Virus record (IMG/VR): IMGVR_UViG_3300044680_000064
Coordinates: 9,632-73,631 of that record
Direction: 5' to 3' (one strand)
Origin: a virus
Lineage: Duplodnaviria; Heunggongvirae; Uroviricota; Caudoviricetes
Length of the DNA stretch: 64,000 nt
In this document: piece by piece, positions 1,420 through 62,107 of the stretch
How the letters are laid out: every line of letters begins with the position of its first letter
Position numbering within the stretch: position 1 is the first letter of the stretch
Translations under genes and position numbers: made by a program
Notes under the pieces: model-generated
Seen by the model: the letters and a program-made list of their open reading frames with translations, nothing else
The model's database searches: none
Told to the model about the DNA's origin: nothing

Positions 1420-1429
1420 ATTCTACGAC
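1420..1429 (-). promoter_or_regulatory. GTCGTAGAAT promoter-like motif (minus strand)
   Basis: Plus strand reads attctacgac. Lies upstream of the 943-1341 minus gene. Confidence 0.4.
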
Positions 1430-1992
1430 GGAAGCACTGGCTCGGTCGAGATTTTCTCGCAGAACCACTTGATTGCGTGCAGACACCAGAGAAATCGGTA
1501 GGCGTAATCCTCGCACGATGGCATGTCGCATCCATCCCAGATTCCGGATTCGTGCATCGCCTTGATAGTCTCATTGGCGTCGCCATCCCAAGTGTCGTGA
1601 TGCAGGCGAATCTCAAGTATCTTTTCGCGATTGTCCGGATTTTCTTCGAGCACCTCTTTCATTTCCTTATCGAAACACTCCGAGCTAAACTCGCGGATGC
1701 CGTCATCGCATGATGCGATGCACTTCTCGGCCGCGTAGTAGTAATCCCTGCAAGCTGAGCGCATAAAGGCAACCATATCGTCAGTGCGACGAAACAAGTA
1801 ATCACCCATGTCGCCGGTGTAGCAAAGGCTGCCAGGCCAAGTCACGATATGGAAGCTCATGTCCGAGCTGCTGGGCTTGCCGCATCGCCAGTGTCGATAC
1901 AAGCCGGCGCTGTGCCGTTGCTCAATGACATGCTCCGCAAGGTCTTTGTCGATCCTCTCCTTGACCATCGCTTCATTTTTCGACATTCTCAT
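1423..1992 (-). CDS. hypothetical protein (189 aa)
   Basis: 189-aa ORF. Diverges from the plus-strand gene block that starts near 2014. Confidence 0.45.
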   Translation of the reverse strand: MRMSKNEAMVKERIDKDLAEHVIEQRHSAGLYRHWRCGKPSSSDMSFHIVTWPGSLCYTGDMGDYLFRRTDDMVAFMRSACRDYYYAAEKCIASCDDGIREFSSECFDKEMKEVLEENPDNREKILEIRLHHDTWDGDANETIKAMHESGIWDGCDMPSCEDYAYRFLWCLHAIKWFCEKISTEPVLPS

Positions 1993-2294
1993 TCGATTCT
2001 CCCATAGTGCACAGTGAGCATTATATTACGGCGCTGGCTGAACTTGCACGATTTTTCGGACGACCGTAAAATTTATCAGATGTACGAACAGACACTACTC
2101 GAAGAGCGTATCCACAAACTCGAAGAGATGAATCGTTCGCTGGTCAGGATCATCGACCAAAAGAACGGAGACATCGAGAAGCGTGACGAGGCGCTCATTG
2201 CCTGGTGCCGTTTCGGCTTGGCCTACTTGGAAAACTGGCAAAAGACTATCCGAACCAAAGCACGTAAAAATGCGTGCAACAAGACATTGGACGC

Positions 2295-3074
2295 ATGGGA
2301 ACCAACAAGCGAAGCAAGGCCGCCACAAGGCTGACTCCAGAGCTCGAAGCGAAGATTCTTGAAACCCTGAACTCCGAAGAGTGGAAGAACCGCTCCACGA
2401 ACGCCATCTCCGCGCACCTCCAGTTGTCCTACAAAATAATCCGCACCGTTCGCACAAAGCACAATCTAAAGCCCAAACGCATCGAACTCGAACACGGCGG
2501 TCAGATGCGAGCCGGGCATATCGGCACGGACAAGGGCCGGCAAGAGCCGCTTACTATCCGCGAACGACAGCGCATGGAAGAGGCCGAGCCGATGGTTCAG
2601 AGACTGGCCCGCGGTGCCGCGAATGGCACCTTGAGCTATGACCAGCTGATAGACGTGGCGCATGACACAATCGAGATAGCGGCGCGCAAGTGGGATCCAA
2701 GTGAAGGCAGAGGCTGGATGACGTATGCGGGCAATGGCATCCGCATGGCGATCAAGCAGGCATTTTGGCGTCGGCGCCAGCAGCTCGAGGTCGAGCGAGT
2801 CTTTTCCGGCGACGACTGTGCCGAGAACCACATTGATGAGAAGTTCGAAGATGACAGGCGGGCGTTTTTGCGTGAACGAATTCGCGGACTGCCGCCACTT
2901 CCACGTCTGATATGCGAGAAGATCATCTTGCTGGCGAGCGAGGGGTGTCAGAGCAAGAAACCGGAGACGTTGGCGAAAGAGGTTGCCATGTTCTGGGATC
3001 GTTCGTTAGAATGGGCCAATCGACAAATCGAGATTGCACGACAACTACTTCTTCAAGGAGATTCCCGTGAGTGA
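2295..3074 (+). CDS. sigma-70 family RNA polymerase sigma factor
   Basis: Region 2-like WMTYAGNGIRMAIKQAF and a C-terminal HTH-like segment. The ORF track starts at 2274; ATG 2295 (MGTNKRS) is the chosen start. Confidence 0.65.
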   Translation: MGTNKRSKAATRLTPELEAKILETLNSEEWKNRSTNAISAHLQLSYKIIRTVRTKHNLKPKRIELEHGGQMRAGHIGTDKGRQEPLTIRERQRMEEAEPMVQRLARGAANGTLSYDQLIDVAHDTIEIAARKWDPSEGRGWMTYAGNGIRMAIKQAFWRRRQQLEVERVFSGDDCAENHIDEKFEDDRRAFLRERIRGLPPLPRLICEKIILLASEGCQSKKPETLAKEVAMFWDRSLEWANRQIEIARQLLLQGDSRE

Positions 3075-3486
3075 AACCAAGAGCAAGACTGCGGACAGCT
3101 TGGCCAAGCAAGCCGAAGCGATGGGTCTGACGGCCACGGCGACGCTCAAGGAGCCGAGCCCGGAGTCAGAGTTCGAGCGTAAACTGGCCTCTAATCCATT
3201 CGAAGGCGCACTTGTCGGTCGGCCAATCGGCAACATGCCGGCATCACCAGGCGCTGGCCTGTTGGGCGGTTGGTCGCCGGACGTTAAGCCAGGTCGCGAG
3301 GCGTTGATGTACCTTGAGGGCGGCGCGATCATGCTGCTCTACATCCCCGGCGATCTTGACGCCGACACCGTGCTGTCGTCAATTGGCAAGGATTACGCTA
3401 ATCGCTCGACTCAGCAGCGATTCAAGGGATTTCTCATTCCCGAACGATGCAGCGCCAGAATCTTCCATTCAGGCCGGCAGTCCTGA
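3067..3486 (+). CDS. hypothetical protein
   Basis: GTG start overlaps the sigma-gene stop. ORF 3034-3486. Confidence 0.3.
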   Translation: MSETKSKTADSLAKQAEAMGLTATATLKEPSPESEFERKLASNPFEGALVGRPIGNMPASPGAGLLGGWSPDVKPGREALMYLEGGAIMLLYIPGDLDADTVLSSIGKDYANRSTQQRFKGFLIPERCSARIFHSGRQS

Positions 3487-3501
3487 ACCGACAAGGAGTA
3501 A

Positions 3502-4107
3502 GTGATGCTGAACGGGCATGTCGTCTTGCACCTGTGGCGGGATGACGTCGATGACAAGTTCTTCTCGCTCCACTTCGAAACCGAGGGCGGCGAAGCGGTC
3601 GCGGTGAAGAAGCTGCGTGCCGCCGCGAACAAGCACCTGCACGAGCAGTTCGAGTTCAGGAGCTTGCGCTCATACGACATTCCGGACGGCCACGATGTCA
3701 CAAGCGATAATCCCGGCGTGCTGCGAGCAGAATATCCGCTCATGGGACCACCGGAACTTCCGCCGCCGCCGCCAACGGACGACGACGCTGACGGCGTGCT
3801 CGCTCCACCGGAGAACATGCAGGCGCCGGGTGCGGCCGGCATTCGGAAAGCCAAGGCGGAATCGCCAAAGCGGGCCGCGATCAACGGTGCTATGAAGCGG
3901 CTTGCCGACAACCCGCCAAAGGTCGAGATACAAAATATGCCCAAAACGTCTGGGCAACATATTTCCGTCGTATCATGTATACGGTGTGGCGGGGGCCACG
4001 ACGACCTTGCTTTGTACGCACTGAACAACGCGCCAGCGACCATCTCCGGCTGGGCGACCTGCCCGGAGACCGGCCAGCCCATGTTTGTTCGGACTGAAGT
4101 GATCTGA
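3502..4107 (+). CDS. hypothetical protein (201 aa), proline-rich middle
   Basis: Uninterrupted ORF. A PPPPP linker separates two halves. Confidence 0.4.
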   Translation: MMLNGHVVLHLWRDDVDDKFFSLHFETEGGEAVAVKKLRAAANKHLHEQFEFRSLRSYDIPDGHDVTSDNPGVLRAEYPLMGPPELPPPPPTDDDADGVLAPPENMQAPGAAGIRKAKAESPKRAAINGAMKRLADNPPKVEIQNMPKTSGQHISVVSCIRCGGGHDDLALYALNNAPATISGWATCPETGQPMFVRTEVI

Positions 4108-4117
4108 TTCTTCACAA

Positions 4118-4438
4118 TTGAGGTTCATCGCAATGAATGTCAAGAATGTTCGAACTATGCCTCTTCGTATCCCGAACGAGGATAGTACTGGAGTAGCGCA
4201 GGTCTCGCCACGTTGCGCAGATTTGCGGAGCTATTTGATTGCGCTCCGCGACAAATTAAAGCTAAACAACGGCGCAATTGCAGCACTTCATAGTAGCGTC
4301 GCTTCCTGCCCATGTGGCAGCGGTGAACTAACAGACAAGCCGGAAAGGGAGCCACTCATTGAGGTTGCCGCCGAGTGTCTTCGGATTGTCGAAGAATCAT
4401 TGAATCAGCTTGAATCTATCCGATCAGTAATCGGATAA
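4118..4438 (+). CDS. hypothetical protein (106 aa)
   Basis: ORF in the co-directional gene block. Confidence 0.35.
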   Translation: MRFIAMNVKNVRTMPLRIPNEDSTGVAQVSPRCADLRSYLIALRDKLKLNNGAIAALHSSVASCPCGSGELTDKPEREPLIEVAAECLRIVEESLNQLESIRSVIG

Positions 4439-4567
4439 TCATAGCAGGCATATTCCCGACTCCTTTTAGTTGGGGATCACGCCCCCGGCCGCTGACAACG
4501 GCGCGGGGGCATTAACAGACAGTGATCGCAGGCATCGCGAGCACGATGGAACCAAGGACGTAACGCC

Positions 4568-4852
4568 ATGTCGCATATCATATTGGACGAGCGCAAGGTC
4601 AAAAAAATCATCACCGACTACGCGAAGGATCGGAACTTCGCTGAAGAAGGCGAGGTGCTCGGTCCCGTGGCGATCGAGGTGCTCGACGGCAACGCGATCC
4701 AGATAGCGATCGAGATTCTGAGCCAGGAAGAGCTAAACGCCGCGGCTGGCGACGCCAGTGGGGCGCAAGACGCCTTCGATGATTCGGTGATTGAGCCGCC
4801 AGCAGTGATACCGTTTCCGCCACCATCCGGGCCAGGGCAATACAATGCGTAA
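4568..4852 (+). CDS. hypothetical protein (94 aa)
   Basis: ORF on the same strand as its neighbours. Confidence 0.35.
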   Translation: MSHIILDERKVKKIITDYAKDRNFAEEGEVLGPVAIEVLDGNAIQIAIEILSQEELNAAAGDASGAQDAFDDSVIEPPAVIPFPPPSGPGQYNA

Positions 4853-4911
4853 GCAACCACCAACGCCGACAACCAACAGCCGCCCATCATGGGCAGACAG
4901 GACGACAGGCC

Positions 4912-5481
4912 ATGATTAACTGCAAGTCTTTTACCGTCACTAACATGGGCGTTCCAGTTCAGCTCCAGGTGTATCCCAATTACACGACCAACCAAGCTGA
5001 GAGCGTCTTCGTTGATGGAAAATTCGTCAGCGTCGAGCTGGAGTCTGATCGCGAGGTAGGCATCCGTCAGTCATGGAGAAGCCGCATCAACATCAGTGTC
5101 CACGAGAAAGTGGCCGAAAAGATGCGACAAAACACAGACTGCGGCGTCGTCATTAGGCAAGGCGGTCCATTCAAAGTCCGCGGCATTGATTTCATGCACG
5201 TCGAGGTTGGCGAATCAGGCGTTGATCCGTGGCGAGAAAATGGCGAGTTCGTCGAGCGAGTCCTTATCGAACTCAGGACTGATCTCAAGCAGGGCGCACT
5301 TCTCAACAACGCCGCCGTCAGCCGCGAGTGGGCGCAATTGTTTCTGACTCCAGAAGAAGCCAAGGGATTTTATCTCGGACTCGGAATCAATTTTGAGTTG
5401 ATGGTCGGTATCAGTCTTCGCGACAGGCCGAGCCCAATCCGCCCAATTCCATACGGCTCGGCAGGAGTAGCCAGTGAGTGA
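4912..5481 (+). CDS. hypothetical protein (189 aa)
   Basis: ORF. Confidence 0.4.
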   Translation: MINCKSFTVTNMGVPVQLQVYPNYTTNQAESVFVDGKFVSVELESDREVGIRQSWRSRINISVHEKVAEKMRQNTDCGVVIRQGGPFKVRGIDFMHVEVGESGVDPWRENGEFVERVLIELRTDLKQGALLNNAAVSREWAQLFLTPEEAKGFYLGLGINFELMVGISLRDRPSPIRPIPYGSAGVASE

Positions 5482-5800
5482 CCACCAGAAATTTGTTCTA
5501 ATCCAGACATGCAGCGGCTGCCCAGAGCAGTATGACGTCTATTTGAACAAAGAATGCGTTGGTTATCTTCGTTTGCGACACGGATCATTCACCGCCAACG
5601 TTTTTGCACCCAAAACGGCTTGTACATGGGAAGAGGTCTATTCGGCGAGCCCGGCTGGCGACGGCATATTTGAACCGGATGAGCGTGAGAGATACCTGAA
5701 CGAAGCGTGCTACGCAATCCGAGCCTGTATCGAGAAAAAGCCACGCGAGCAACTGCCGGTTATCTTCGAGATCGGAACCAAAATCGACGCGTCGGAGTGA
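5474..5800 (+). CDS. hypothetical protein (108 aa)
   Basis: ORF overlapping the upstream stop by 8 nt. Confidence 0.35.
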   Translation: MSDHQKFVLIQTCSGCPEQYDVYLNKECVGYLRLRHGSFTANVFAPKTACTWEEVYSASPAGDGIFEPDERERYLNEACYAIRACIEKKPREQLPVIFEIGTKIDASE

Positions 5801-5803
5801 GCC

Positions 5804-6421
5804 ATGAGTCAATCAAGAGATTGGTTTGATACGGTGTTTGCAGGCATCATTATTTGTCTGGTCGTCAGCGGCTGCATCAACGGATCAACCGACAGAAGGA
5901 TCAACGCCACAGACGCCAAGATCGAGCAGCTCGACCGCAAAACCGACGAGATCCTCAAAATCGCCAAGAAGTTCACCGCGGCAGCGCCAGCAAGAATAAA
6001 GATCCCTCTTGAAGAACCTTTACGGTCGCAGATCAATGCCGCGTTGGCGGCAGTGCCAGAGGGAACCGTCAGACTTACGATTCGTGGAATTGTTCCTCCG
6101 CGCGACCGAGAAGTCGTATCCGGAATAAGCGTGTTTCTGAACTGCCGTGAGGCGAATTCGGAAACTTCGACTTCTTCGCCCAATTTTGTTGGCACGCGCG
6201 AATTCAATCAGTCGGAAACACAGGCATTCAACATTAATCTGACACCTGCGCTTTTGGCTTTGAGAAATGACGGCAAATTGGAATTGAAGAATCAGCTTTG
6301 GATTACGCTTGTGGCATATCCGGCGAAGGCTGAGGTGAAAATCCCGAAGGATTTTTCAATTTCCTTCGGTGAAGTGACGGTCACGGTCCCAAAAGCTAAA
6401 GGCGGCCCGTGGGACAAGTGA
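5804..6421 (+). CDS. putative lipoprotein
   Basis: N-terminal hydrophobic stretch ends in a lipobox-like LVVSGC. Confidence 0.5.
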   Translation: MSQSRDWFDTVFAGIIICLVVSGCINGSTDRRINATDAKIEQLDRKTDEILKIAKKFTAAAPARIKIPLEEPLRSQINAALAAVPEGTVRLTIRGIVPPRDREVVSGISVFLNCREANSETSTSSPNFVGTREFNQSETQAFNINLTPALLALRNDGKLELKNQLWITLVAYPAKAEVKIPKDFSISFGEVTVTVPKAKGGPWDK

Positions 6422-6735
6422 ATGATAATGAGGCATTTCTGATTCTGGCGAACGACTGTCCTGGATCGCTAAGCACGTTTGATATAGTACCACATCCGTC
6501 AGCGGTCGCGGCGTCGCCGTGTAGATCATTTGGCGGATTATGCCTTGATCTTCAGTAAGGTCAGTGCCGTCAGGGCGGAAGTGGATTGCGTCCCACACTC
6601 CCGAGCCGTTGAGTCGTGCCATGACTTGGGCTTCCCTTCTGCCGACGTTAAATTCCCGTTACCAGCGTCACGTCAGTCTTCGGAGTCGTTCCGGTCATTG
6701 CGATTCCTTCGCCTCGGAAAACAAGGAATAGGATC

Positions 6736-7161
6736 ATGTTACGACGCAAGTTCTTAAAATCAGTATTCGCTGGCATTGGCGGATTGGCTGCCGCGGCCAT
6801 CGTGCCAAAAAAGTCGTTCGCCTCCATCTACCAGAAGTGCGCCGGCAAGTACAATTTTGGCGACAGATTTGAGATGCGGTCCCTTCAGGTCGGAGCTGGC
6901 AGGCCGCCATGCGTCTTCACGATCACCGACGTGCCATTCTCGATCCTGGAGAGTATGAACGGCAGCCCCTGCGCAGCCACTGTCGGCCTGCAATCAATCC
7001 TCGGGCTGAGGCTGTTGAAGGTCAATGTATGCCGCTTTACGCCGACACTGCCCGCAGATGGGAAAACACGGTGCGACATCGAGCTTCACTTCGATAGCGA
7101 CGAAAGACTGATCGCACTGGTTCCGAAAGAGCAGAACGTTCCCGCCGAAGGAACACATTGA
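6736..7161 (+). CDS. Tat-signal secreted protein
   Basis: Twin-arginine motif RRKFLK followed by AGIGGLAAAA. Confidence 0.5.
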   Translation: MLRRKFLKSVFAGIGGLAAAAIVPKKSFASIYQKCAGKYNFGDRFEMRSLQVGAGRPPCVFTITDVPFSILESMNGSPCAATVGLQSILGLRLLKVNVCRFTPTLPADGKTRCDIELHFDSDERLIALVPKEQNVPAEGTH

Positions 7162-7377
7162 TGAAAGAAGACCAGTTCGAGTTCGACGACCGACACCAGG
7201 CCATCGCCGAAACAAATCGGCACTCCGTAAGTCCTAATTGCATCTCCGCCCGCCTGACCTTGAAAGACGGAAAGTTCATCGTTACAGTCAAGTATGTGGA
7301 AGAAGGCGAGTTTACTCCGGCCGAACTCGCCAGATATTACGCGACCGGAATACTCGAAAAACTACCAGTTCCAAGCA

Positions 7378-8070
7378 ATGGCACGGACGGCAATCAGCCA
7401 AATCCCGACTGATATCGCCAAAGAACTCACCCCAAAACAACGCGAGTTCCTACGCCTCTGCGTCGCCCGCGGTGCCAGCACTTCCGATGGCGTCATGATG
7501 CAATGTTATCTAGACGCAGGCTTCAAAGTAAATATTGATTCAGCACGCTCTTGCGGGAATAGATTGCTCCGTTCTGTGCATGCAAAAGCATATCTTGCTG
7601 AACTGCATAGACTTAAAGAAGATGCGGCCGTCGAGCGCATGAAAAGAGAGTGGCTCGAAAGCCTTGAAGAACGTCGCGTGCTGGCCCATTACGATCCCGC
7701 TGACCTGTACGACGAAGAAGGTAATCTACTGCCTCTCAAGGACATGCCGAGCACCGTGCGAAAAGCCATTACTGGCGTGCGGATGAATAAAAAGGGAACG
7801 AAGCTCATTGGCGTTCAGCTGGACAAGAAGCACCAGCACCTTGACGTGATCGAAGACAAATACAGCCTGATGCCGGATAACAAGCGGATCCCGGAGAAGC
7901 TCGAGATTTCTGGCGGGCTGACGGTCGAAGCGCTTCAACCTCGGGACCAGAGGCTAAAGATCATCGACGATGTTATCGCGCGCTGGGAAGCGGAGAAGGC
8001 CGGTGCTGAGAAAGTGACCGACACTACGCCACAAGCCTCCCTACCAGCCCATGAAAGTCCTGGAAGTTGA
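7378..8070 (+). CDS. terminase small subunit-like protein (Terminase_2 type)
   Basis: LTPKQREFLRLCVARGASTSDGVMMQCYLDAGF...SARSCGNRLLRSVHAKAYL matches the terminase small-subunit HTH motif. ATG at 7378 lies inside ORF 7294-8070. Confidence 0.55.
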   Translation: MARTAISQIPTDIAKELTPKQREFLRLCVARGASTSDGVMMQCYLDAGFKVNIDSARSCGNRLLRSVHAKAYLAELHRLKEDAAVERMKREWLESLEERRVLAHYDPADLYDEEGNLLPLKDMPSTVRKAITGVRMNKKGTKLIGVQLDKKHQHLDVIEDKYSLMPDNKRIPEKLEISGGLTVEALQPRDQRLKIIDDVIARWEAEKAGAEKVTDTTPQASLPAHESPGS

Positions 8071-8809
8071 GCTCGCGTCGATGCCGCATCATCTGGCAAT
8101 CGAGCGCGTGTATGAACGCCGGGCACTCCCGCAAGTCATTTAGAGCACGCTCTTTAATCTGACGCACCCGCTCCTTTGTAACGCCAAGCTCTTTGCCCAT
8201 CGACTCTAGCGTTCGATCTTCGAAAATGCACTCGCGGATGATTTGAATCTCGCGGCCGGTCAGGACCAATGACATGAGAGCGATAAGCTCGGCCTTGATC
8301 TTTGGCTCCTCGTCGTCGCTATACTCGTTGCCTGGCCCACGCGAGTCGAATACCTCGAGCGCTGATGCGTCGTAATGATTTCTCAAGGCTCCGTGCATCA
8401 TCTCGCTCATGTCGATGACGACACGGTACTTGAATCGTTTGTCTGTGGTCCTTGCACAGATTCGGAAGTCCGATGACTGGATCCCTTCTCGAATAGCCCC
8501 GCGGATGCACCAGGATGCGTAGGTCGAGAACTTGATCGGCTTGCCGTCTTTTGGATTTGTTCGAGTCGGATCGAATTTGCGAGCGGCCGCGCAGAGCCCG
8601 ATCCAGGCGGTATCGAGAATGTCTTCGTAGACGCAGAGCCGCTTGGCGTGGAAGTGTGTGTGCGAGTAAGAGAATGAGACGATATACGAAGCGTGTGTCA
8701 TCGCGATTTGACGCGCGAGCCCCTGATTGTCGATGACGAGCCTTTGCTGCTCGGGAGTGAGACGGTGGGTTTGCTTGACTGCGGCCTCTTCGCCACCAAT
8801 ACTGTCCAT
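8024..8809 (-). CDS. sigma-70 family RNA polymerase sigma factor
   Basis: Region 2 (FSTYASWCIRGAIREGI) and region 4 (LTGREIQIIRECIFEDRTLESMGKELGVTKERVRQIKERAL). ATG at 8807-8809 with an AAGGAG RBS. The 3' end overlaps the convergent TerS 3' end. Confidence 0.7.
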   Translation of the reverse strand: MDSIGGEEAAVKQTHRLTPEQQRLVIDNQGLARQIAMTHASYIVSFSYSHTHFHAKRLCVYEDILDTAWIGLCAAARKFDPTRTNPKDGKPIKFSTYASWCIRGAIREGIQSSDFRICARTTDKRFKYRVVIDMSEMMHGALRNHYDASALEVFDSRGPGNEYSDDEEPKIKAELIALMSLVLTGREIQIIRECIFEDRTLESMGKELGVTKERVRQIKERALNDLRECPAFIHALDCQMMRHRRELNFQDFHGLVGRLVA

Positions 8810-8858: not shown

Positions 8859-8868
8859 ATTCTACCAC
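8859..8868 (-). promoter_or_regulatory. GTGGTAGAAT variant of the promoter motif (minus strand)
   Basis: About 50 nt upstream of the sigma ATG. Confidence 0.3.
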
Positions 8869-9072: not shown

Positions 9073-9321
9073 TCAAATCTGGTAGTCGATCAAAGCCAAT
9101 TCAGCGTCAGTATAGTGCCTAAATAGCGTCGTGTTTCCGCTCCCCTGCGTCGAACAGTGGCACAGGTACTTGCCGCCATGATTTATGGGCTGTTCGCACA
9201 TAAAGAGGCGACCGCCGCAATTCGGGCATTTGAGCGACTCGGGCGCATCGGCTGTCCAGTGTACTACGGTGAAGTTCGTGTGATTTGGCATCATGCTAGA
9301 ATGCTCCACAAGAACTTGCAC
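9073..9321 (-). CDS. zinc-ribbon protein (82 aa)
   Basis: CPNCGG...CHC pattern. Confidence 0.35.
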   Translation of the reverse strand: MQVLVEHSSMMPNHTNFTVVHWTADAPESLKCPNCGGRLFMCEQPINHGGKYLCHCSTQGSGNTTLFRHYTDAELALIDYQI

Positions 9322-9614
9322 GCGACATGCAAAAGCTGGTCGTCTTTGAACGACGTTACGCTCTCACATTTTACGACGTCGATGATAAAGTGGGCCACGA
9401 ATTCGGCAAGACCGAGCCAAATGTTTCCTGTCACGAGAGCCACGGCGCCTGCGTGGATGAGGCAGTGCATCGCCATCAACCACCACCAGGGCATGCCAGG
9501 AAATGCCGTGTGCTTGCTTTTCCCTTTGGCCAAGAAGTCGCCCTGCAACGGAAAGTCGCATAGCGCGTGGGCGACCATGAGGTAGAAGAGCGTGCGAATC
9601 ATGACTTGAGCCAC
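9291..9614 (-). CDS. small integral membrane protein (DUF3307-like?)
   Basis: Hydrophobic segments. The family call from the HALCDFPLQ motif is a memory-based guess. Confidence 0.4.
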   Translation of the reverse strand: MAQVMIRTLFYLMVAHALCDFPLQGDFLAKGKSKHTAFPGMPWWWLMAMHCLIHAGAVALVTGNIWLGLAEFVAHFIIDVVKCESVTSFKDDQLLHVACKFLWSILA

Positions 9615-11272: not shown

Positions 11273-11644
11273 TCATTTCTCCTTCAGTTGGCGGACGATA
11301 TTTACTGCTTGTCTGAACGTCAAAGCCTTATGACTCCACCACTTCGCAGCTAGTTCATTTTCGGACACTGACGATGCGTACTCAGCGGCGCGTTTTTCCA
11401 GTGCCTTCGCCGCCTCCTCCAGAACGTCGGCGCGGGCGGCAGTGATTTCCGACAAAACAAATGTGGTTAGGCCAAGCATCGCTCTTTGAATGCCAACCAC
11501 CTCAACCAACTTTCGAAAGTTCTTCCCTTCGCTATCATGCTTGGCTTCATTGACCGCTTTCATGAAGCTGGAAATGGCATCGCCAACTCGTTTTTCCGCA
11601 GTTGTTTCAGGCGTCGGCATTGTGTTGCTCCTTTGTGGCCGCAC
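11273..11644 (-). CDS. hypothetical protein (123 aa)
   Basis: ORF in the minus-strand operon. Confidence 0.4.
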   Translation of the reverse strand: MRPQRSNTMPTPETTAEKRVGDAISSFMKAVNEAKHDSEGKNFRKLVEVVGIQRAMLGLTTFVLSEITAARADVLEEAAKALEKRAAEYASSVSENELAAKWWSHKALTFRQAVNIVRQLKEK

Positions 11645-13072: not shown

Positions 13073-13465
13073 TCATCCCTTCGTCTCCGTGGATGCGAGA
13101 GCAGCGCGAGCGCTGCGACACATCGGACATGCGACAAGCTGAGGGGTTTGATGATATTCCGTTACTTTGCCAGTCCCGCCGCATTCACGGCATCCGCCGA
13201 TCATTACTGAGAGTGCCGCCCGCAGCTTCTCATTCTCGTCGGTGAGGCGCTTGTGGTTGTTGACAGAATCCCTGATGATCTTGGCATTGTCAGGCGGCAT
13301 GCTTTGCAAGCCAATCTCCCGATCTGCCATATGAGCAATCAAAACACCGTTCTTGTCGCGAACGTCTATTCCGTCCACGAAAACGTCAAGCTGCCACGGT
13401 ATCGGCGCGTGTTTCACTTCTTCCGTCATCGCTTCCTCGCTTTCAGGGGTTCGATATGCCGTCAT
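13073..13465 (-). CDS. hypothetical protein with C-terminal CxxC pairs
   Basis: Internal ATG (MTAYRT) of ORF 13073-13621. Confidence 0.4.
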   Translation of the reverse strand: MTAYRTPESEEAMTEEVKHAPIPWQLDVFVDGIDVRDKNGVLIAHMADREIGLQSMPPDNAKIIRDSVNNHKRLTDENEKLRAALSVMIGGCRECGGTGKVTEYHQTPQLVACPMCRSARAALASTETKG

Positions 13466-13511
13466 TCTACTACCGCGGCTTGACGCCGTAACAGAAATTG
13501 GGTAAAGTTTT

Positions 13512-13751
13512 GTGATGAAAGAGTGTACACTTATCGAAGTCCACACGCCTGGCGCTGAGGTCAGGATTGGCGATCTGGTCGCCGTAGTCTGCGGCATCTC
13601 GATCAAAGGGCCGGCCGACAATCCGCACGTCGCTTACGAAATCGCATGGTGGGATGGCTCGACTCGGCATTCGCAGTGGGTTCAGGAATTCGAGATCGCG
13701 GCAAGTGCAAACGGTCGTAGAATGGCGATTGGATTCATGAAACAGGAGTGA
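13512..13751 (+). CDS. hypothetical protein (79 aa)
   Basis: Sigma-70-like promoter upstream: TTGACG, 17-nt spacer, TAAAGT. Confidence 0.4.
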   Translation: MMKECTLIEVHTPGAEVRIGDLVAVVCGISIKGPADNPHVAYEIAWWDGSTRHSQWVQEFEIAASANGRRMAIGFMKQE

Positions 13752-15179: not shown

Positions 15180-15189
15180 GTAGTAGAAT
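15180..15189 (+). promoter_or_regulatory. GTAGTAGAAT variant of the promoter motif
   Basis: 24 nt upstream of ATG 15213. Confidence 0.35.
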
Positions 15190-15991: not shown

Positions 15992-16001
15992 GTCGTAGAA
16001 T
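15992..16001 (+). promoter_or_regulatory. GTCGTAGAAT promoter-like motif
   Basis: About 30 nt upstream of ATG 16030, which has a GAGGGGG RBS. Confidence 0.45.
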
Positions 16002-19032: not shown

Positions 19033-19042
19033 GTCGTATAAT
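19033..19042 (+). promoter_or_regulatory. GTCGTATAAT promoter-like motif
   Basis: Upstream of two leader hairpins and the 19153 gene. Confidence 0.45.
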
Positions 19043-19049
19043 GCCGGTG

Positions 19050-19124
19050 TCAGGCGTTTTCAATCCCCTGAGACGCCTGATACATTCTGTCCGGGGTCGG
19101 CTCGAGAGGCAGGCGAGCCGACCC
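19050..19124 (+). promoter_or_regulatory. two tandem leader hairpins (8-bp stem and 11-bp stem)
   Basis: tcaggcgt...acgcctga and gggtcggctcg...cgagccgaccc, followed by a T-rich run. Confidence 0.45.
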
Positions 19125-19152
19125 TACTATGTTTGTCTCCATAGCGAGGACC

Positions 19153-19662
19153 ATGTCGATGAACCCGGAAAAGCGCAAAGAGATCGCGGCACGAGCCGCG
19201 GCAAGTCGCCAACAACCGAAAACACAGGCATCGGGCTGCAAAATCAACGGCCCGGCGTGCGAGGCTGTGGCCAAAATCGTGAAACAGAAGACGCTCGTCA
19301 AGCTGCCGTGCGGGCACGAATTCCCGCCGCAGAACCTGCCCAAGTGCGGTGCCTGCCGGGACAAGGATCGCAAGGCCAAGAACGAGAAGAACAGGGCCAA
19401 GATGGCTGCTAAGCTCGCCGCAGGCCAAGGAAATCCCGAGAAGGACGGCCAGCACAAGCTCAAGGGCCGTCTTCCCGACAAGGCGAAGTATATTTGCGAC
19501 TATGATTCCGAGGCCCAGGAATGGTCTGGGACGCTTTATGTGTCCGGTCAGACGTTCATGGCCAAAGCGAGCGGGTTGTTTCGGCTGGAGAAGCAACTGG
19601 ACGAGCAATACCGTGCTTGGCTTGCCTCCACGAGAGCGGAAATGGCAGAATTGGCGTCATGA
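19153..19662 (+). CDS. basic Cys-containing protein (~170 aa)
   Basis: ATG with a GAGGA RBS. ORF 19129-19662. Confidence 0.4.
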   Translation: MSMNPEKRKEIAARAAASRQQPKTQASGCKINGPACEAVAKIVKQKTLVKLPCGHEFPPQNLPKCGACRDKDRKAKNEKNRAKMAAKLAAGQGNPEKDGQHKLKGRLPDKAKYICDYDSEAQEWSGTLYVSGQTFMAKASGLFRLEKQLDEQYRAWLASTRAEMAELAS

Positions 19663-25803: not shown

Positions 25804-26112
25804 TCGTCATCGTCCCACGACGAATCGTCGCCGTCATCCTCGTCGTCTGGCACCGGGCGAGCGTGTATCGAGACCATTTCAAACGCTCCGAAAAACGGCG
25901 GCGGTTCGACGCTATCGTACATTCGCTCTCGGACAACGGCACGGAGATCGACGCTCATGCCATATTCTCGATTGTCTTAGGCCGGCCGCGACCGAGTCAA
26001 GCCGGGGAGTCAAAGAGGTGTGGTCGCGGCCGGCATTCGCATGTAATTTTGTTCACTCCCCGGTTCAGAAATAGTAATCTCGCGCGGCTGAAGTGTCAAG
26101 CCCGCTTGCGCG

Positions 26113-26122
26113 GTCGTAGAAT
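26113..26122 (+). promoter_or_regulatory. GTCGTAGAAT promoter-like motif
   Basis: 20 nt upstream of the AAGGAG RBS and ATG 26142. Confidence 0.45.
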
Positions 26123-26745: not shown

Positions 26746-26815
26746 AGCCCGGTGCATGAGTTGAACATGCGACCTACGGATTAAAATCCGCCGCTCTACA
26801 CTGAGCTAACCGGGC
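26746..26815 (-). tRNA. degenerate tRNA-Lys(UUU)-like gene with a 6-nt anticodon loop (possible pseudo-tRNA or variant tRNA)
   Basis: Clover-leaf GCCCGGT/ACCGGGC acceptor, GCTC/GAGC D-stem, GCATG-TTCAACT-CATGC T-arm. Anticodon arm GCGGA-UUUUAA-UCCGU, with the loop one nt short of E. coli tRNA-Lys CUUUUAA. D-loop lacks GG. Confidence 0.5.
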
Positions 26816-27018: not shown

Positions 27019-27028
27019 ATTCTACGAC
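27019..27028 (-). promoter_or_regulatory. GTCGTAGAAT promoter-like motif driving the tRNA cluster
   Basis: Ends 15 nt upstream of the suppressor tRNA 5' end. Confidence 0.45.
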
Positions 27029-27083: not shown

Positions 27084-27093
27084 GTCGTAAGAT
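27084..27093 (+). promoter_or_regulatory. GTCGTAAGAT variant motif, divergent from the tRNA promoter
   Basis: In the intergenic region upstream of the replication gene. Confidence 0.25.
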
Positions 27094-30808: not shown

Positions 30809-30818
30809 GTCGTAGAAT
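30809..30818 (+). promoter_or_regulatory. GTCGTAGAAT promoter-like motif
   Basis: 23 nt upstream of ATG 30841. Confidence 0.45.
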
Positions 30819-38213: not shown

Positions 38214-38247
38214 AGACCGGCGCAATCACGCGCCGGTCTTTTTTTTG
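38214..38247 (+). terminator. rho-independent terminator
   Basis: Perfect 10-bp stem agaccggcgc/gcgccggtct, 6-nt loop, T8 run. Confidence 0.75.
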
Positions 38248-38273: not shown

Positions 38274-38283
38274 GTCGTATAAT
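38274..38283 (+). promoter_or_regulatory. GTCGTATAAT promoter-like motif
   Basis: 40 nt upstream of ATG 38324. Confidence 0.45.
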
Positions 38284-51282: not shown

Positions 51283-51354
51283 CCGAGCCTCTTTGCCCGA
51301 CGATCGTGTGCTGCGTTTGCCTACGTCTCTTGAAACCAGACGAGGAAATGCGGC

Positions 51355-54300: not shown

Positions 54301-55605
54301 CCGACCAAAGGCGGAACGGTCGGCGGCGTTGTCGGTAAAGGCATTGATTCGGTGATGCCGCTCATCGCGCACCAGTCTCCCGAAAACCCGCTGACTTTGC
54401 CTGCGTCAAATCGGCTGCGTTCCCCTACGTCTGTTGTAGCTTACGCGATGAGTATGCCAGGCTCGACAGACGCCAGCGTGCCACATTCAGCAGAGGGCCA
54501 CATGGCTGACGACAGCGAAGACGAAAACGAGCGTAACGAGAAACCGGGCGATCAGTCCGGCGAGACGGCAGGCGAAGAGCGTCAGGTCGCCGAAGAAGAC
54601 AAAGAGCCGGAAGGCTACGCTCAGCATTGCAAGTGCATGGAATACGCGATGCAGCATCACCCGAGGCTGTATGGCGTCGTTCAGCACTACGAAAACGCGA
54701 TGGCAGCCGAAGGCGCGAATCAAGAAGGCGACGCGGATCAGGAAGCGGCTCAAGACGACGAAGCCGCGGCCAGTGATTGCGAAGCCGCGGCCGACGAAGA
54801 GCATCAAGGCGAAGACGACGCCGAACTTCAGCGAATTCTCGGCGGCGGCGCCAAGGAAATGCCGGAACCTGAAGGCGACAAGCCGCAAGGATACGGCGTT
54901 GAAAAACTTCTGCCCGGCGGCGAGCAAGCGGACACGCTCGGGAAAAGCGCTCTCGGTGCCGGCCTTGGCGGACTAGCCGGTCTCGGTGTCGGTTCTGTTT
55001 TGGGTCATCCAGGAGCCGGAGCCGCAGTTGGCGCTGGCTTGGGCGGTTTAGCGGGGAAAAAAGTCATGTCTCAAGGCGATCAAGTTCCGGCCACGTATGC
55101 CGCGGCCGTCAACAATGCGTTTGAACAGGTCATCACCGAGCTCCGCTCTGTCAAGGGCGAGGTCGGGCAGCTCAAGCAGCGAGACGCCGCGAAGAGCAAG
55201 ACGATCGAAACGCTCTCCCGCGAGCGTGACGAAGCCAAGACGGTCGCCCTCATGTACCAGCTCCGGAATACCGGCGTGAAAGCCATTGGTCAGCCGGGCT
55301 CCAAGGAAGAGAAGGCCGTTTACGATCTTCTCCTCGCGATGGACGAGCCGAGCCGCACGGCCGAAGTCACCCGCATGCTGGCGTACTACGAAAAAGACGC
55401 CTCGACTCCGTACACGAATGCTGGCGCTCCGACCGGCCCGATGCTCGGCTCTGGTTTCGTGAGTCAAGCCGCTGTCACCGCGAACTCGAAACCGAAGACT
55501 CTGCCTCCGCACAAACTCGACGAAGCCTTGAAGTATATGCGGAAGACTGGCAAGGAGTTCGACGAGTGCGCCCAGTACGTGATGGACGGCGGCTCGGTCA
55601 ACTGA
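51355..55605 (+). CDS. giant head protein: Mu gpI-like protease/scaffold candidate with Gly-zipper repeats (1416 aa)
   Basis: Sits between the portal and the capsid gene. Tripled GxHYIPPxYxAxxTPEQ motif, GxxxG-rich tracts, acidic segment and terminal coiled coil. Confidence 0.5.
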   Translation: MAIVTYSDPTVDFLKTLDDPRLWVKVENAPIFKPHERTIKGPDGAEKKIVITEDDLEPIAQQINQLAADDGSLPIMTIGHRVQNDPNFKETNQPPWVGVVCNAKKGTFGPKNKPAITATLYYKRKHWEEAKEYPFRSIDFYPGSNKVSGVALLTRDPYLSMGIISYQSEDALTTPWTYHAPANDVPESHTSVRAPKEGIELGGHKFGPGHYIPPHYIAHATPEQYSMLTARPAVPAIKQTGSVQSHGLSTPKVSTQRAAKEIAAAGKAHMATHGANGPIHNDGGEEAEEYALTQRLKSGAAKFGKRTAAKAIHSTAGHAAIGAGVGALVGGAHSAIKGDSVGEGAAKGAIAGGAAGAASKQISKKFQKKRISIPAVMTSAAGKKPVKYGQGEKIGRTIGEIGGGIAGGVGGSLVTPVVGTAIGGAGGALAGGELGAELGKHFDKPVKMESGGESPVRAPAGGLDIDGCHFAANHYIPPKYVAMMTPEQHKLCGSDGEAAEYSLGSKMKNAAGAAALLAGTMGGIHSVQKATNPVRVGIQQANQHATQKRANSVQIAPPIPTRHEAGKKPAQYGAASSLIKGAVNLGKGALKSQTLRRAATDAAVQGGLDVGVKALGDQLSGQGIKHTLTDPATLHTGLLGAAAGGAAGAIDHKLNGGKTAVPAASNDSLGSAQLQGKRKPVAYVLKPHVMVDPGSGQLKMGYQNIYDGTICYDVQHAPAGAPTSLAGKTFKPGEFIPAADMAKATPQEKAALSQPKPAAGAMPQLGGGLPQLPKIPGAAPAPAGMPTMAAPGGEAGKMPAMPTAKPQAESPAPAAKPAAEAPKGAAPAKVEAPEADLSKTVTDFASTAPPELRKALTNHLNQTMAGKLGKFISGASPEQLEKIAADLAKKPVSDNGPSWGKLITGSVEDAGHVIGIGKGADKRSWWEKNAPKWLGGAVDKSYRANLEKYPAKKAASIAVIVGVLAGGFAAKHYIKKKIGVSIPTKGGTVGGVVGKGIDSVMPLIAHQSPENPLTLPASNRLRSPTSVVAYAMSMPGSTDASVPHSAEGHMADDSEDENERNEKPGDQSGETAGEERQVAEEDKEPEGYAQHCKCMEYAMQHHPRLYGVVQHYENAMAAEGANQEGDADQEAAQDDEAAASDCEAAADEEHQGEDDAELQRILGGGAKEMPEPEGDKPQGYGVEKLLPGGEQADTLGKSALGAGLGGLAGLGVGSVLGHPGAGAAVGAGLGGLAGKKVMSQGDQVPATYAAAVNNAFEQVITELRSVKGEVGQLKQRDAAKSKTIETLSRERDEAKTVALMYQLRNTGVKAIGQPGSKEEKAVYDLLLAMDEPSRTAEVTRMLAYYEKDASTPYTNAGAPTGPMLGSGFVSQAAVTANSKPKTLPPHKLDEALKYMRKTGKEFDECAQYVMDGGSVN

Positions 55606-56367: not shown

Positions 56368-56790
56368 TTGTCATGTAAGGAGTTAGGTATGGGCCTCCAG
56401 CAAGGCTTTATCGCGAATGGTAACATTTACCCTTGCCGTTTCGTCATCATCGACACGAGCGTCGGTCAGGGCGGACGAGTGGACCAGTCCGGTGCCGGCG
56501 GCGTCATCTTCGGCGTGAGCCAGAAGGATTGCCGCATCGCTCCGATTCTGGACTCGAACGGCTACGCGGCCTCGGCTGGCGAACCGATCGCGGTCTACGA
56601 CCTGAACAGCGAGTGCGCCCTCGAAATCTCCGCGACCGTGACTCAGGGTCAGCTCTTGAAGAGCGACTCGAACGGCGAAGGCACGCCGGTCACGACCGAC
56701 AAGGACATCTACGGTGCCGTGGCGCTTCAGAACGGCGTCGCTGGCGACCAGATCAAGGTTAAGGTCTTGTTCGGCTATTACGAGGGTTGA
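56368..56790 (+). CDS. head decoration-like protein (DUF2190-like, 140 aa)
   Basis: GNIYPCRFVIIDTSVGQ...GDQIKVKVLFGYYEG. Sits immediately before the capsid gene. Confidence 0.45.
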   Translation: MSCKELGMGLQQGFIANGNIYPCRFVIIDTSVGQGGRVDQSGAGGVIFGVSQKDCRIAPILDSNGYAASAGEPIAVYDLNSECALEISATVTQGQLLKSDSNGEGTPVTTDKDIYGAVALQNGVAGDQIKVKVLFGYYEG

Positions 56791-57398
56791 TCGGATTCGT
56801 CTGCGTATACGCGAGATTTGCCGCGACCGTATCCGAGCTTGAGAGGAAGACCGAGTGCTTGGCGTTTGGACTTTATTTGCGAAACAACAGGACCAAGCAA
56901 TAGCATTTCTTCCTCAGTGAATTGGTTGCCTTTGATAACGTTGCAAAGGCCACAACATGGAACGACATTGTCGAGCGTGTAATGTCCGGCACTGTCAACG
57001 CGATCGAGCCAGGTGCCATTTTCGTGCGGCGTGAATTTGCAGTAGTGGCACGGCTGAAGTATTAAGTCTCCGTACTGCTCGATCGTTAAATGGAATTCGT
57101 GTTTTGCGCGACGAGCTGTGATCTTGGCAAATGTGAATCGGCCCTTAATCGTGCGACGATAAGCACGTGCCCTTAGAGCTTCGCAATGCAGGCAACGATA
57201 GGAGAATCGACGTTTTTGGATGCCGCTTGCGGTCGTGAGATTTTTAGCCACGAACTTGTCATAAGGCTTCCATTGTTTGCAGGTGCTACAGCGAAGTAAT
57301 TCTGGCGGTTGCGTTCTTTCCATGCAGCGCTTGCAGAGACCATCAATGACGGCTTTTGAAAGTTTGCAGTAGAGACAAAGGTCCATGAGGTTCTCCAA
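56778..57398 (-). CDS. HNH homing endonuclease (free-standing, inserted in the head module)
   Basis: GHYTLDNVVPCCGLCNVIKG HNH motif with N-terminal CxxC zinc fingers. Convergent overlap with the decoration gene. Confidence 0.65.
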   Translation of the reverse strand: MENLMDLCLYCKLSKAVIDGLCKRCMERTQPPELLRCSTCKQWKPYDKFVAKNLTTASGIQKRRFSYRCLHCEALRARAYRRTIKGRFTFAKITARRAKHEFHLTIEQYGDLILQPCHYCKFTPHENGTWLDRVDSAGHYTLDNVVPCCGLCNVIKGNQFTEEEMLLLGPVVSQIKSKRQALGLPLKLGYGRGKSRVYADESDQPS

Positions 57399-57482
57399 AC
57401 AAATACTGGTATTAGAGCATTATACCAGAATATGTTTTGAGAAACACGCCAGTCACAACAGCGTTTGGAGAAAAGGTTTAAC

Positions 57483-60313: not shown

Positions 60314-60801
60314 TGAATCTCTTGGGTGCAACCCTGAGCATCGGTCTCGCGTGGAACTCGCAAAAGGTTCTCACGAACTTCAATCCCGATACGCAGAACG
60401 GACAGTGCGCGGCCACTCTCGGCCCGACCGTATCGAGCGCGGCGTGCTCCGATGTCTGGTTCATCGGCGGCACGCTTGCGGCCTCGGGCTCGATCACTTT
60501 CGACCTTACCGCTCTCACCGACCATTTCGGCTCGTCGCTGACCGCGACCGGCGCGTACTGCATCGTCGTGACGGCAAGCGGAGCGTCATGGACGTACAGC
60601 CCCGGCGCGTCGAATGGTTTTGCATGGTTTTTGGGCGGAACTTCACCGACGATCACCGGGAATAGCGGCGATTGCTTTGGATACGGTTCGGCCACAACCG
60701 CTGGCGTCGTAAACAGTACGAACAAGACAATCAAGATTCTCAACAACAGCGGATCGGCGTCTCTCAACTATTCGATCGCCGTGCTGCTGAAGACGTCGTG
60801 A
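60313..60801 (+). CDS. Ser/Thr/Gly-rich structural protein (tail tube candidate, 162 aa)
   Basis: ATGA overlap with the upstream gene. Confidence 0.4.
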   Translation: MNLLGATLSIGLAWNSQKVLTNFNPDTQNGQCAATLGPTVSSAACSDVWFIGGTLAASGSITFDLTALTDHFGSSLTATGAYCIVVTASGASWTYSPGASNGFAWFLGGTSPTITGNSGDCFGYGSATTAGVVNSTNKTIKILNNSGSASLNYSIAVLLKTS

Positions 60802-60833
60802 CCGCTTTGACCGTCCTGAACGTGCGGTCAGAC

Positions 60834-62072
60834 CTATGGATTTAGAGCGGAAATTGCATCGTTATTGGCAGCTCTGTACGGTTCAAAAAGCCTGCTGCTG
60901 ATAACACGATCGAGACCGTCTTCGATTATTCTTCTCGCAATTAAGAATTTGCGAGGAAGCGATATTGTGGCGCGACAATAAAAATGCTTGCAAAGTTCGT
61001 AAATTTGACGTTTGCCGCCCAGCTCAATCAGCCATCCCTTGCCATGATCGCTTTGGCGTGGCTTGCATTGTGTTCCTGTGATCGTGGCGCAATAATCGGC
61101 AAATCCTTTGGTCATGAATTCGTTTCCAGTAATTGTTACGCGACCACAAATGGAACCGTCGCCGTCAATGACGCCGCGCCAGTAGTGTCGCATAAGTTCT
61201 CGCGGACCATTCCAGGGTCTTATAACCAAGGACTTTCTTGGACCTATTCGAATACCGGCGAGGTCACTGACCATCTTGGCGGAAATCCAGTTGAGACGAA
61301 CGACCTTGTACGGATTTCCGAGATAATTCATCTGTCTTCTCATGACCGGGCATGTGGATTTAATTTCTCGTCTGATTCGGTCCAAGATAAACCAATCATC
61401 ACCTTTGAGCATGATCGACAAAACATCATTGTCACCAATCCCGCCGTCAGCAGAGAAAAATCCGAGTATCCACGCCTTGGCCTCAGTGTCTATCCGCGAA
61501 AAATAGGAATCGTCAACGGATTCCTTAACGTCATTATGGCGACGCCGAAATTGACTTCTCTTAACGGTATCGGTGCAACCAGCGAATATGGCTCGTTGAA
61601 TGAAGCGCACCGATCTTCCGGTTCGTGCTTGTATAGAACCGATGCTTTCGCCATTCTCGAAAGCATCGGAAATAGCAATCATTTCTTGATACGGAGCCCA
61701 GATTTCCTCATCGGTCAACGGTTTGTAGAACGGCTGAATTTTTCTGTAAACGTGTGGAGCGCACACGTTGTATTTGACGGCTATGGTCTTTGGTGCAACG
61801 CCAGAGAGAAAATCAGCGACAATTTGTTCGTCTCGACGTTTAACGAATTCCATCGTCTCTTTAAGAGGAATTCCGACATAATACTTCCCGCGACCACACG
61901 AGGAATAATCTCGACGTTTGACGCCAGCTTTGGTCAAGGCTTCCGAGACAGTTCGGTGCTTGACGCCAATAGCGTTCGCAATATCAATCGTTTCCTGCCC
62001 GGACAAATAGCGATCGACGATGTTTTTGTTTCGCGTTCTAGCGGCATCTATGACGTGATATGGCAGGCTCAT
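60834..62072 (-). CDS. LAGLIDADG homing endonuclease (double-motif, free-standing)
   Basis: WILGFFSADGGI and WRGVIDGDGSI motifs with N-terminal HTH modules. Start reassigned to ATG 62070-62072, 26 nt downstream of a minus-strand GTCGTATAAT motif. TAG stop. Confidence 0.75.
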   Translation of the reverse strand: MSLPYHVIDAARTRNKNIVDRYLSGQETIDIANAIGVKHRTVSEALTKAGVKRRDYSSCGRGKYYVGIPLKETMEFVKRRDEQIVADFLSGVAPKTIAVKYNVCAPHVYRKIQPFYKPLTDEEIWAPYQEMIAISDAFENGESIGSIQARTGRSVRFIQRAIFAGCTDTVKRSQFRRRHNDVKESVDDSYFSRIDTEAKAWILGFFSADGGIGDNDVLSIMLKGDDWFILDRIRREIKSTCPVMRRQMNYLGNPYKVVRLNWISAKMVSDLAGIRIGPRKSLVIRPWNGPRELMRHYWRGVIDGDGSICGRVTITGNEFMTKGFADYCATITGTQCKPRQSDHGKGWLIELGGKRQIYELCKHFYCRATISLPRKFLIARRIIEDGLDRVISSRLFEPYRAANNDAISALNP

Positions 62073-62097
62073 GCGTTTGCCCTGTGACAGAGTTTCT

Positions 62098-62107
62098 ATT
62101 ATACGAC
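62098..62107 (-). promoter_or_regulatory. GTCGTATAAT promoter-like motif upstream of the LAGLIDADG gene
   Basis: Plus strand reads attatacgac. Confidence 0.4.

Follow-up and report, generated by a model that had tools for sequence, protein, structure and literature searches.

A recurrent GTCG-TA(G/T)AAT element in an uncultured ~104-kb phage resembles a single-element, -35-independent promoter

Introduction

The DNA analysed here, hereafter the window, is a stretch of 64,000 nucleotides (positions 9,632 to 73,631) from the IMG/VR virus record IMGVR_UViG_3300044680_000064, and forms part of a 103,868-bp metagenomic contig of an uncultured phage of about 104 kb. The phage encodes a Mu-like portal protein, a DnaB-type helicase, an intein-bearing protein of 935 amino acids, a BCS1-like ATPase, a sigma-70-family protein and a pair of transfer RNAs (tRNAs), and its non-structural genes are repeatedly preceded by a 10-bp element, GTCGTA(G/T)AAT (GTCGTAKAAT, where K is G or T), which is the subject of this study. 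An original prediction, made from the sequence alone, had described this element as a promoter-like motif at eleven sites. The host of the phage is likely to belong to the Planctomycetota; to our knowledge, very little is known about promoters in these bacteria and almost none has been characterised, and our search of the literature found no paper on a Planctomycetota promoter consensus.

Results

The window contains nine exact copies of GTCGTAKAAT, against 0.07 expected from dinucleotide-preserving shuffles, which confirms the promoter-like motif as a real feature of the sequence. Looser definitions give 18 matches with up to one mismatch (3.9 expected) and 13 matches to GTVGTANAAT (0.37 expected), and the same contig has one more exact copy 5 kb to the left of the window (L006, position 16270). 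The two halves of the motif are linked: 13 of the 24 TA(G/T)AAT hexamers in the window follow GTNN (GTCG in nine cases, GTAG in two, GTGG and GTAA in one each), and among the 30 copies of GTCGTA the continuation (G/T/A)AAT or AGAT is limited to non-coding copies and to the copy at 9368, which lies in an open reading frame (ORF). Likewise, the non-coding copies of GT.GTA...T all end in TAGAAT, TATAAT or TAAGAT, with the two exceptions of 9258(-), which has TACACT, and 6484(-), which has TACTAT; both were labelled intergenic by rough gene calls, and 6484(-) lies inside a called ORF. In the approximately 79 kb examined, GTCG-TA(G/T)AAT is the only strongly recurrent motif. A full-text search of the literature with the motif strings matched just primers and one coincidental predicted promoter of Propionibacterium phages.

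The anatomy of the element is that of a -10 region with a short extension. When TA(G/T)AAT is placed at -12 to -7, the alignment of 13 sites has an invariant G-16 and T-15, C-14 in 9 of 13 and G-13 in 12 of 13, and position -6 is G or A. All 13 aligned sites carry a hexamer of the form TAnnnT, with A as its second and T as its sixth base, which is the pattern by which they were chosen. The hexamer agrees with TATAAT at five or six of the six positions and varies at position 3, a position that is likewise variable in sigma-70 promoters. A TTGACA-type -35 hexamer 16-18 bp upstream was not found: positions -36 to -29 never exceed 0.7 bit, and a partial match (3-5 of 6 bases) occurs in just three to four sites. 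The original prediction, in which a -10 TAGAAT or TATAAT had GTCG immediately 5' and no conserved -35, is borne out by the enrichment, strand, position and non-coding restriction of the sites. It had overlooked an A/T-rich patch at -42 to -38, in which 54 of 70 bases are A or T compared with 48% in the upstream background, and whose score was reached in none of 5000 circular-shift trials. This patch is 5-6 bp long, often reads AAAATC or GAATTC (about rAAWTC) and lies about 20 bp 5' of GTCG; a match to AAATTC within one mismatch is present at this distance in 7 of 15 sites, against 3-5 at other offsets.

Positions -16 to -6 together hold about 19 bits of information, and about 13 bits are needed to specify 13 sites in 128 kb (both strands), so that the single element suffices without a -35. 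Three pairs of sites share longer stretches, namely 13464/15180 (19 identical bases, CGCGGTAGTAGAATGACGG), 13714/27019 (19 identical bases, AACGGTCGTAGAATGGCGA) and 19033/38274 (16 identical bases, GTCGTATAATGCCGGT), and their identity runs into a G/C-rich discriminator, GnCGR. This suggests that the pairs are sub-classes or arose by recent copying of promoter cassettes. Sites outside the three pairs have nothing in common beyond -18 to -2, and the element is without dyad symmetry.

The strong sites all lie outside coding sequence and, as had been predicted, all point towards the next gene (Table 1). Coding sequence makes up about 85% of the window and contains no site except that at 9368. At ten sites the end of the hexamer is 19-49 nt from an ATG or GTG with a Shine-Dalgarno sequence, close to the 20-50 nt first proposed, a range exceeded by the sites at 1420 (78 nt) and 19033 (86-110 nt). 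Ten of the eleven sites listed at the outset were right in coordinate and strand and the eleventh, at 27084, differs from the motif by two bases rather than one; the sites at 2020(-), 9368(-), 13464(-) and the exact copy at 13714(+) had been missed. Altogether, at least 13 transcription units in the window appear to start from GTCG-TA(G/T)AAT. Over about 45 kb of non-structural genes the sites stand before leftward and rightward units; the gene for the phage sigma factor, the two tRNAs and, on the opposite strand, an endonuclease gene are likewise preceded by a site. On the plus strand, no site was found in the part of the window to the right of 38.4 kb or in the 9.9 kb that follow the window on that side (L005), which leaves a structural region of about 35 kb (38.4-74 kb, L005 included) free of sites save for the one that serves the opposite-strand endonuclease gene.

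Table 1. Putative promoter elements and sigma-factor genes in the window
Feature	Position	Strand	Context
Promoter element GTCGTAGAAT	1420..1429	-	Heads gene 943-1341; ATG 78 nt downstream; AAAATC 20 bp upstream
Variant GTAATATAAT	2020..2029	-	Heads gene 1423-1992; ATG 27 nt downstream; AAAATC 20 bp upstream
Tentative second sigma gene	2274..3074	+	Weak region-2 similarity
Sigma-70-family gene	8024..8809	-	Sigma70_r2, Sigma70_r4 and PHROG sigma-factor matches
Variant GTGGTAGAAT (GTGG)	8859..8868	-	Phage sigma gene 8024-8809; ATG 49 nt downstream
Candidate internal promoter GTCGTAAAAT	9368..9377	-	Within ORF 9291-9602; weakest of the 13 GTVGTANAAT matches
Variant GTAGTAGAAT	13464..13473	-	Heads leftward unit; ATG 34 nt downstream
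Exact GTCGTAGAAT	13714..13723	+	GTG start 30 nt downstream, after Shine-Dalgarno aggag
Variant GTAGTAGAAT (GTAG)	15180..15189	+	ATG 15213, 23 nt downstream
GTCGTAGAAT	15992..16001	+	ATG 16030, 28 nt downstream
GTCGTATAAT	19033..19042	+	Leader of 86-110 nt, folded into two hairpins
GTCGTAGAAT	26113..26122	+	ATG 26142, 19 nt downstream, after Shine-Dalgarno aaggag
GTCGTAGAAT	27019..27028	-	Stops 14 nt short of the mature 5' end of the tRNA pair's first gene
Weak candidate GTCGTAAGAT, two mismatches	27084..27093	+	Divergent from 27019; TTGACG-18-TATCAT candidate 60 bp downstream
GTCGTAGAAT	30809..30818	+	25 bp past helicase stop codon; ATG 30841
GTCGTATAAT	38274..38283	+	ATG 38324; 35 bp past terminator-like hairpin
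GTCGTATAAT	62098..62107	-	25 nt upstream of ATG 62072, endonuclease gene 60834-62072

Several sites have notable surroundings. The leader that would be made from the 19033 promoter (19043-19155, +) forms two long hairpins with a folding energy of -48.4 kcal/mol (z = -4.3 relative to shuffles); a search of Rfam with this leader gave no match, and the leader may have a role in regulation or processing upstream of gene 19129/19153-19662. The hairpin that precedes the 38274 site (38214-38239, followed by T8) is the strongest terminator-like hairpin of the region. The position of the 62098 site had been used to place the start of the endonuclease gene at 62072 rather than 62129, and an independent gene call of 412 amino acids begins at the same codon. 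The assignment of this gene to the LAGLIDADG endonucleases stands in part: its product (60834-62072) matches a PHROG endonuclease family and has two LAGLIDADG-like motifs by eye, ILGFFSADGG and WRGVIDGDGS, but no LAGLIDADG model of Pfam matched it. The structural module holds a second opposite-strand gene, 56778-57398(-), whose product is HNH-like by eye; 20 nt upstream of it, at 57419-57428(-), lies CTGGTATAAT, a canonical TGn extended -10 and the sole non-coding TAKAAT hexamer without GT at -16/-15.

The phage had been said to encode two sigma factors. One of these, at 8024-8809, is firm, having both sigma-70 regions 2 and 4; its best scores are against RpoH, RpoS and FliA-type models, and it is group-3-like by NCBIfam. 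Region 2.3-2.4 of this protein reads FSTYASWCIRGAIRE, compared with FSTYATWWIRQ in RpoS/RpoD. Its region 4.2, VTKERVRQIKERAL, is near-identical to the -35 recognition helix of RpoS/RpoD and thus predicts a TTGACA-like -35, which is lacking at the motif sites. Two IMG/VR scans found no close homologue of this sigma factor, and a large protein search returned the query itself only, at an overly strict maximum e-value of 1e-10. The second protein, at 2274-3074, is weakly sigma-like, with an E value of about 0.1 against RpoS chains and of 5e-4 against the 8024-8809 sigma; Pfam, NCBIfam and PHROG gave no match for it. It is part of a rightward block (2014-8070) that is closed by a gene for a small terminase subunit (Terminase_2, 7378-8070, +), which is separated by about 40 kb from the genes for portal and capsid and converges on the sigma gene 8024-8809.

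Rfam recognises both tRNAs downstream of the 27019 site, with scores of 63 and 59 bits. The first (26931-27004, -) has the anticodon CUA (amber) and is labelled 'Pyl' by ARAGORN, and the second (26746-26815, -) has an abnormal anticodon loop, TTTTAA, which counts 6 nt, or 8 nt with its closing A-T pair opened, and is UUA-like (ochre) at its centre, so that from their sequences both look like suppressors. In the rough gene calls, 62 of 86 stop codons are TGA, 13 are TAA and 11 are TAG. There is no sign of wholesale recoding, and the long ORFs stay intact with the standard code. Elsewhere in the window, the 935-residue ORF (32685-35492, +) carries Hint_2, Intein_splicing and Vint domains at residues ~400-680, and the Mu-type portal domain occupies residues 71-446 of a protein of 1258 residues (47506-55605, +); the portal proteins of two relatives (L003 and L004) measure 913-1390 residues. 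The 1416-residue protein that follows the portal protein has glycine-zipper as its sole family match.

Canonical promoters were also sought in the window. Three scans for -35/-10 pairs gave 8 candidates against 4.0 expected by chance, 19 against 11.1±3.7 and 14 against 10.0±3.1, and as a set these candidates are not significantly above chance. Some of them adjoin the motif in three divergent control regions. TTGACG-17-TAAAGT (13480-13517, +) lies before ATG 13515 and TTGCAC-17-TAAAAT (2044-2083, +) before ATG 2081; in both the -10 ends 6-7 nt before the ATG, which suggests that these two host-type candidates give leaderless mRNAs that head divergent units. Other candidates of the form TTGAC-N17-18-TAnnnT are at 26071-26099(-), 27153-27182(+), 11295-11323(-) and 44463(+).

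Among isolate phages, a megablast search with the phage gave nothing and tblastn gave distant matches only. A search of IMG/VR gave one locus with a helicase 52% identical, while capsid and helicase homologues of about 50-66% identity are numerous in metagenomes (best capsid 52%, best helicase 66%); a first scan of genome contigs with a capsid alignment gave nothing. Logan contigs are identical to the window and therefore carry no microdiversity signal. One related prophage shares its scaffold with a purQ gene 70% identical to that of Planctomycetota and Gemmataceae metagenome-assembled genomes, and another (L088) lies directly downstream of a tRNA-Val gene, by an integrase, in Frigoriglobus tundricola (CP053452, 9,714,439-9,736,235). 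The helicase of the latter is 53% identical, and through this prophage the wider phage family has a host in culture, a member of the Gemmataceae. Because of these prophage relatives and of a tetranucleotide usage consistent with this placement, the host of the phage itself is likely to be a member of the Planctomycetota. In the related early regions, intergenic and divergent DNA carries promoters of the TTGAC-N16-18-TAnnnT or TGn-TATAAT type. In L089, the closest relative by helicase, a TGn extended -10 of textbook form, TTGCTATAAT, follows just past the helicase gene, at the place where the window has GTCGTAGAAT, and a further relative (L090) has an integrase and a back-to-back TTGACA-16-TACAAT promoter pair that resembles a lysogeny switch. 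Two matches in another locus (L082) were considered as host copies of the motif and rejected, as they are explained by a GC content of 40% and a palindrome.

Discussion

The enrichment of the GTCG-TA(G/T)AAT sites, their co-orientation with genes, their distance to start codons and the tRNA and their non-coding placement lead us to conclude that they are, with high probability, transcription promoters, of a type that appears to be single-element and -35-independent. In its full form, our favoured reading holds that these promoters are read by the primary sigma factor of the host, and to this statement we would assign a probability of roughly 0.5. Our inference from the sequence, which covers the sigma factor, the point where transcription starts and the part played by each base, would then run as follows. 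A sigma-70-family holoenzyme on the host RNA polymerase core would bind TA(G/T)AAT as the -10, with the invariant A-11 and T-7, and would use the adjoining G-16, T-15, C-14 and G-13, in duplex form, as an extended -10 of a non-canonical type; no -35 contact would be needed. UP elements, the sites of the alpha-CTD, are A/T-rich tracts that lie between -38 and -59, and the A/T patch at -42 to -38 could act like a proximal UP element, or could just be bendable DNA. Transcription would begin about 7 nt past the hexamer, which would give short leaders with a Shine-Dalgarno sequence and, upstream of the tRNA, one of about 7 nt. With the host primary sigma as reader, the class would constitute the early, non-structural promoter set of the phage and would also turn on the phage sigma gene, after which the two sigma-like proteins may serve other, late promoters.

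Three points speak for the host sigma factor. The hexamer is of the primary-sigma consensus type; the sites stand at the phage sigma gene and at non-structural genes and avoid the structural ones, as would fit the usual cascade in which early promoters use the host sigma and a phage sigma is kept for late genes; and region 4.2 of the phage sigma predicts a -35 that the sites lack. Other observations weigh against it. GT.GTA.AAT does not occur at all in six related early regions of phages and prophages (L001, L087-L092, about 106 kb), GTNG before TAKAAT shows no excess in 80 loci from Planctomycetota and neighbouring groups (1.1 Mb), and the few recognisable host tRNA promoters are TTGACG-N17-TAnnnT without the GTCG extension. 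Since the motif is absent from relatives and from chromosomal DNA, which use TTGAC, the GTCG extension and the missing -35 are specific to this phage among everything sampled. A motif found only in this phage thus co-occurs with a sigma factor found only in this phage, and an unaided host sigma offers no obvious cause for all sites to have dropped the TTGAC box of host and relatives. Moreover, the -10 regions of group-3 sigma factors typically have a GC-rich block directly next to an A/T core (for example CCCCATnT for sigma-32 and GCCGATAA for sigma-28), and the 8024-8809 protein is group-3-like. Finally, no second, late motif for the phage sigma factors emerged ahead of the structural genes: in 17-25 upstream regions searched with exact and mismatch-tolerant k-mers, nothing rose above shuffles.

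Many of these points feed a second explanation, the main rival of the first, which we consider possible and less probable than recognition by the host sigma, namely that the motif is the recognition element of the group-3-like phage sigma 8024-8809 acting on the host core, and that the sites form a phage-specific middle class. Here, GTCG would be read as duplex by regions 2.4/3.0 and TAKAAT would be melted; the 10-bp element would be recognised alone, through duplex contact with G-13 and G-16, while the -35-reading domain of the protein itself would be ignored. The sigma gene would begin to be expressed by read-through from a host-type promoter, such as TTGACG-17-TATCGT at 11295-11323(-), and would then boost itself through GTGGTAGAAT. 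Motif and sigma alike are confined to this phage, in a setting where relatives and host DNA have canonical TTGAC/TAnnnT promoters, and no other strongly recurrent motif was found. This explanation also gains from the protein itself: on our reading of the residues, its region 2.4 departs from primary sigmas at the contacts to -12/-13 (WCIRGAIRE versus WWIRQAITR), and the next helix is basic (RICARTTDKR). The G/C block abutting the A/T core would resemble a group-3 composite -10 region, and the canonical -35/-10 candidates in the three divergent control regions could be true early promoters, but such candidates are not enriched over chance. A precedent exists in gp36 of phage phiEco32, which uses a single element, tAATGTAtA, with transcription starting 6-8 bp downstream (PMC8948821; PMC12276001). 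However, known phage-sigma promoters are unlike the host consensus (PMC8948821), whereas the hexamer here is close to that of primary sigmas. The phage protein has also kept an RpoS/RpoD-like region 4.2 although the sites are without a -35, and the motif is absent from the structural genes, the usual place of phage-sigma action.

A third explanation, which we regard as unlikely, keeps the host primary sigma as the reader of TAKAAT and adds a phage accessory protein, either an anti-sigma factor directed at region 4 or a sigma 'appropriator', that would enable the class. Such a factor would shut down the -35-dependent promoters of the host and favour -35-less ones, and perhaps contact GTCG or the patch near -40; AsiA and MotA of phage T4 and gp39 of the Thermus phage P23-45 are analogues. 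It would account for the loss of the TTGAC box at all 13-15 sites in a phage whose host and relatives depend on TTGAC, and it could make use of the positioned upstream element, rAAWTC, about 20 bp 5' of GTCG; in addition, many small early ORFs of no assigned function adjoin the sites. However, no homologue of AsiA, MotA or gp39 was present among the proteins scanned, which were a minority of the ORFs, and the upstream element is weak (7 of 15 sites within one mismatch) and centred at -40, whereas a MotA box lies at -30. Least probable by far is that the motif is no promoter and instead a site for a repressor or an operator, a signal for recombination or packaging, or a sequence cassette copied in recent times: the three pairs of sites with 16-19 identical bases could mean copying rather than selection, but the remaining sites have nothing in common outside -18 to -2, the element has no dyad symmetry, its core is a -10 hexamer, each site, on the coding strand, is as far from a start codon or tRNA as a promoter would be, and the coding part of the window is free of sites except for 9368.

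The motif provides a ready map of transcription units for a phage of about 104 kb and corrects at least one start codon (62072). It describes a compact 10-bp promoter with all specificity in one element, whose extension is G-13 rather than the textbook TGn. The contrast with the TTGAC-using relatives and host points to a deliberate switch away from -35 recognition, by way of the phage's own sigma factor, a factor directed against region 4 or a different host. A short, strong promoter, possibly with an orthogonal sigma factor, would be a useful genetic part for Planctomycetota, and if the element does prove to be the cognate promoter of the 8024-8809 protein, it would constitute a new phage sigma/promoter pair and a compact orthogonal transcription switch for these bacteria. 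Beyond its use as genetic parts, it is a feature of the kind expected in a large phage.

Among known promoter classes, the extended -10 promoters (TGnTATAAT, with the TRTG '-16 region' of Gram-positive bacteria) share with the phage sites a near-consensus -10 with a short duplex extension directly upstream. Both have T-15 and a purine at -16, both lack a -35 hexamer, and in both one element defines the sites. The difference lies in the extension: in the phage an invariant G-16 and a C at -14 precede a G at -13 that abuts the hexamer, while TGn has G-14 and leaves -13 free. T-15 is present at all 13 sites, but position -14 is C in nine, A in three and G in only one. The strong early promoters of the large lytic phages T4 and T5, in which the region near -42 is A/T-rich, likewise occur in many copies at early or non-structural units and tRNA genes, and share the near-perfect -10 and an A/T patch at about -40; they also combine a good -35 hexamer with the canonical TGn, and the sites described here lack both. 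The composite -10 regions of the group-3 factors sigma-32 and sigma-28 also have a 4-bp G/C-rich block abutting an A/T-rich melting core, but carry a matching -35 at a distance of 13-15 bp, where the phage has only the upstream element 20 bp from GTCG.

Two further classes were considered and rejected. In a T4-type middle promoter, conservation would be expected at -30, where the phage sites have none; their sole upstream element lies at -42 to -37, and a partial scan of the proteins showed nothing like AsiA or MotA. The motif does contain the GTC/CGTA of promoters for extracytoplasmic function (ECF) sigma factors, but the AAC that such promoters have 16-17 bp upstream of CGT or GTC is missing at -34 to -31, and the A-rich element is 20 bp from GTCG.

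The phiEco32 gp36 type resembles the present case in having a sigma-70-family protein of the phage itself, a conserved element of about 9-10 bp near the expected start and no -35 consensus. The element of phiEco32 does not resemble the -10 of its host and is used for middle and late (structural) genes; gp36, whose structure has been determined (PMC12276001), is without a normal region 4 (PMC8948821). In the phage described here a sigma gene is likewise present in the genome, but the element has a host-type hexamer as its core rather than a sequence unlike the host consensus, it avoids the structural genes instead of preceding middle and late genes, and the sigma factor has an RpoS/RpoD-like region 4.2. 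Taken against these systems, the class is a -35-less, single-element promoter with a non-canonical extension, a known kind of promoter and a fairly ordinary one.

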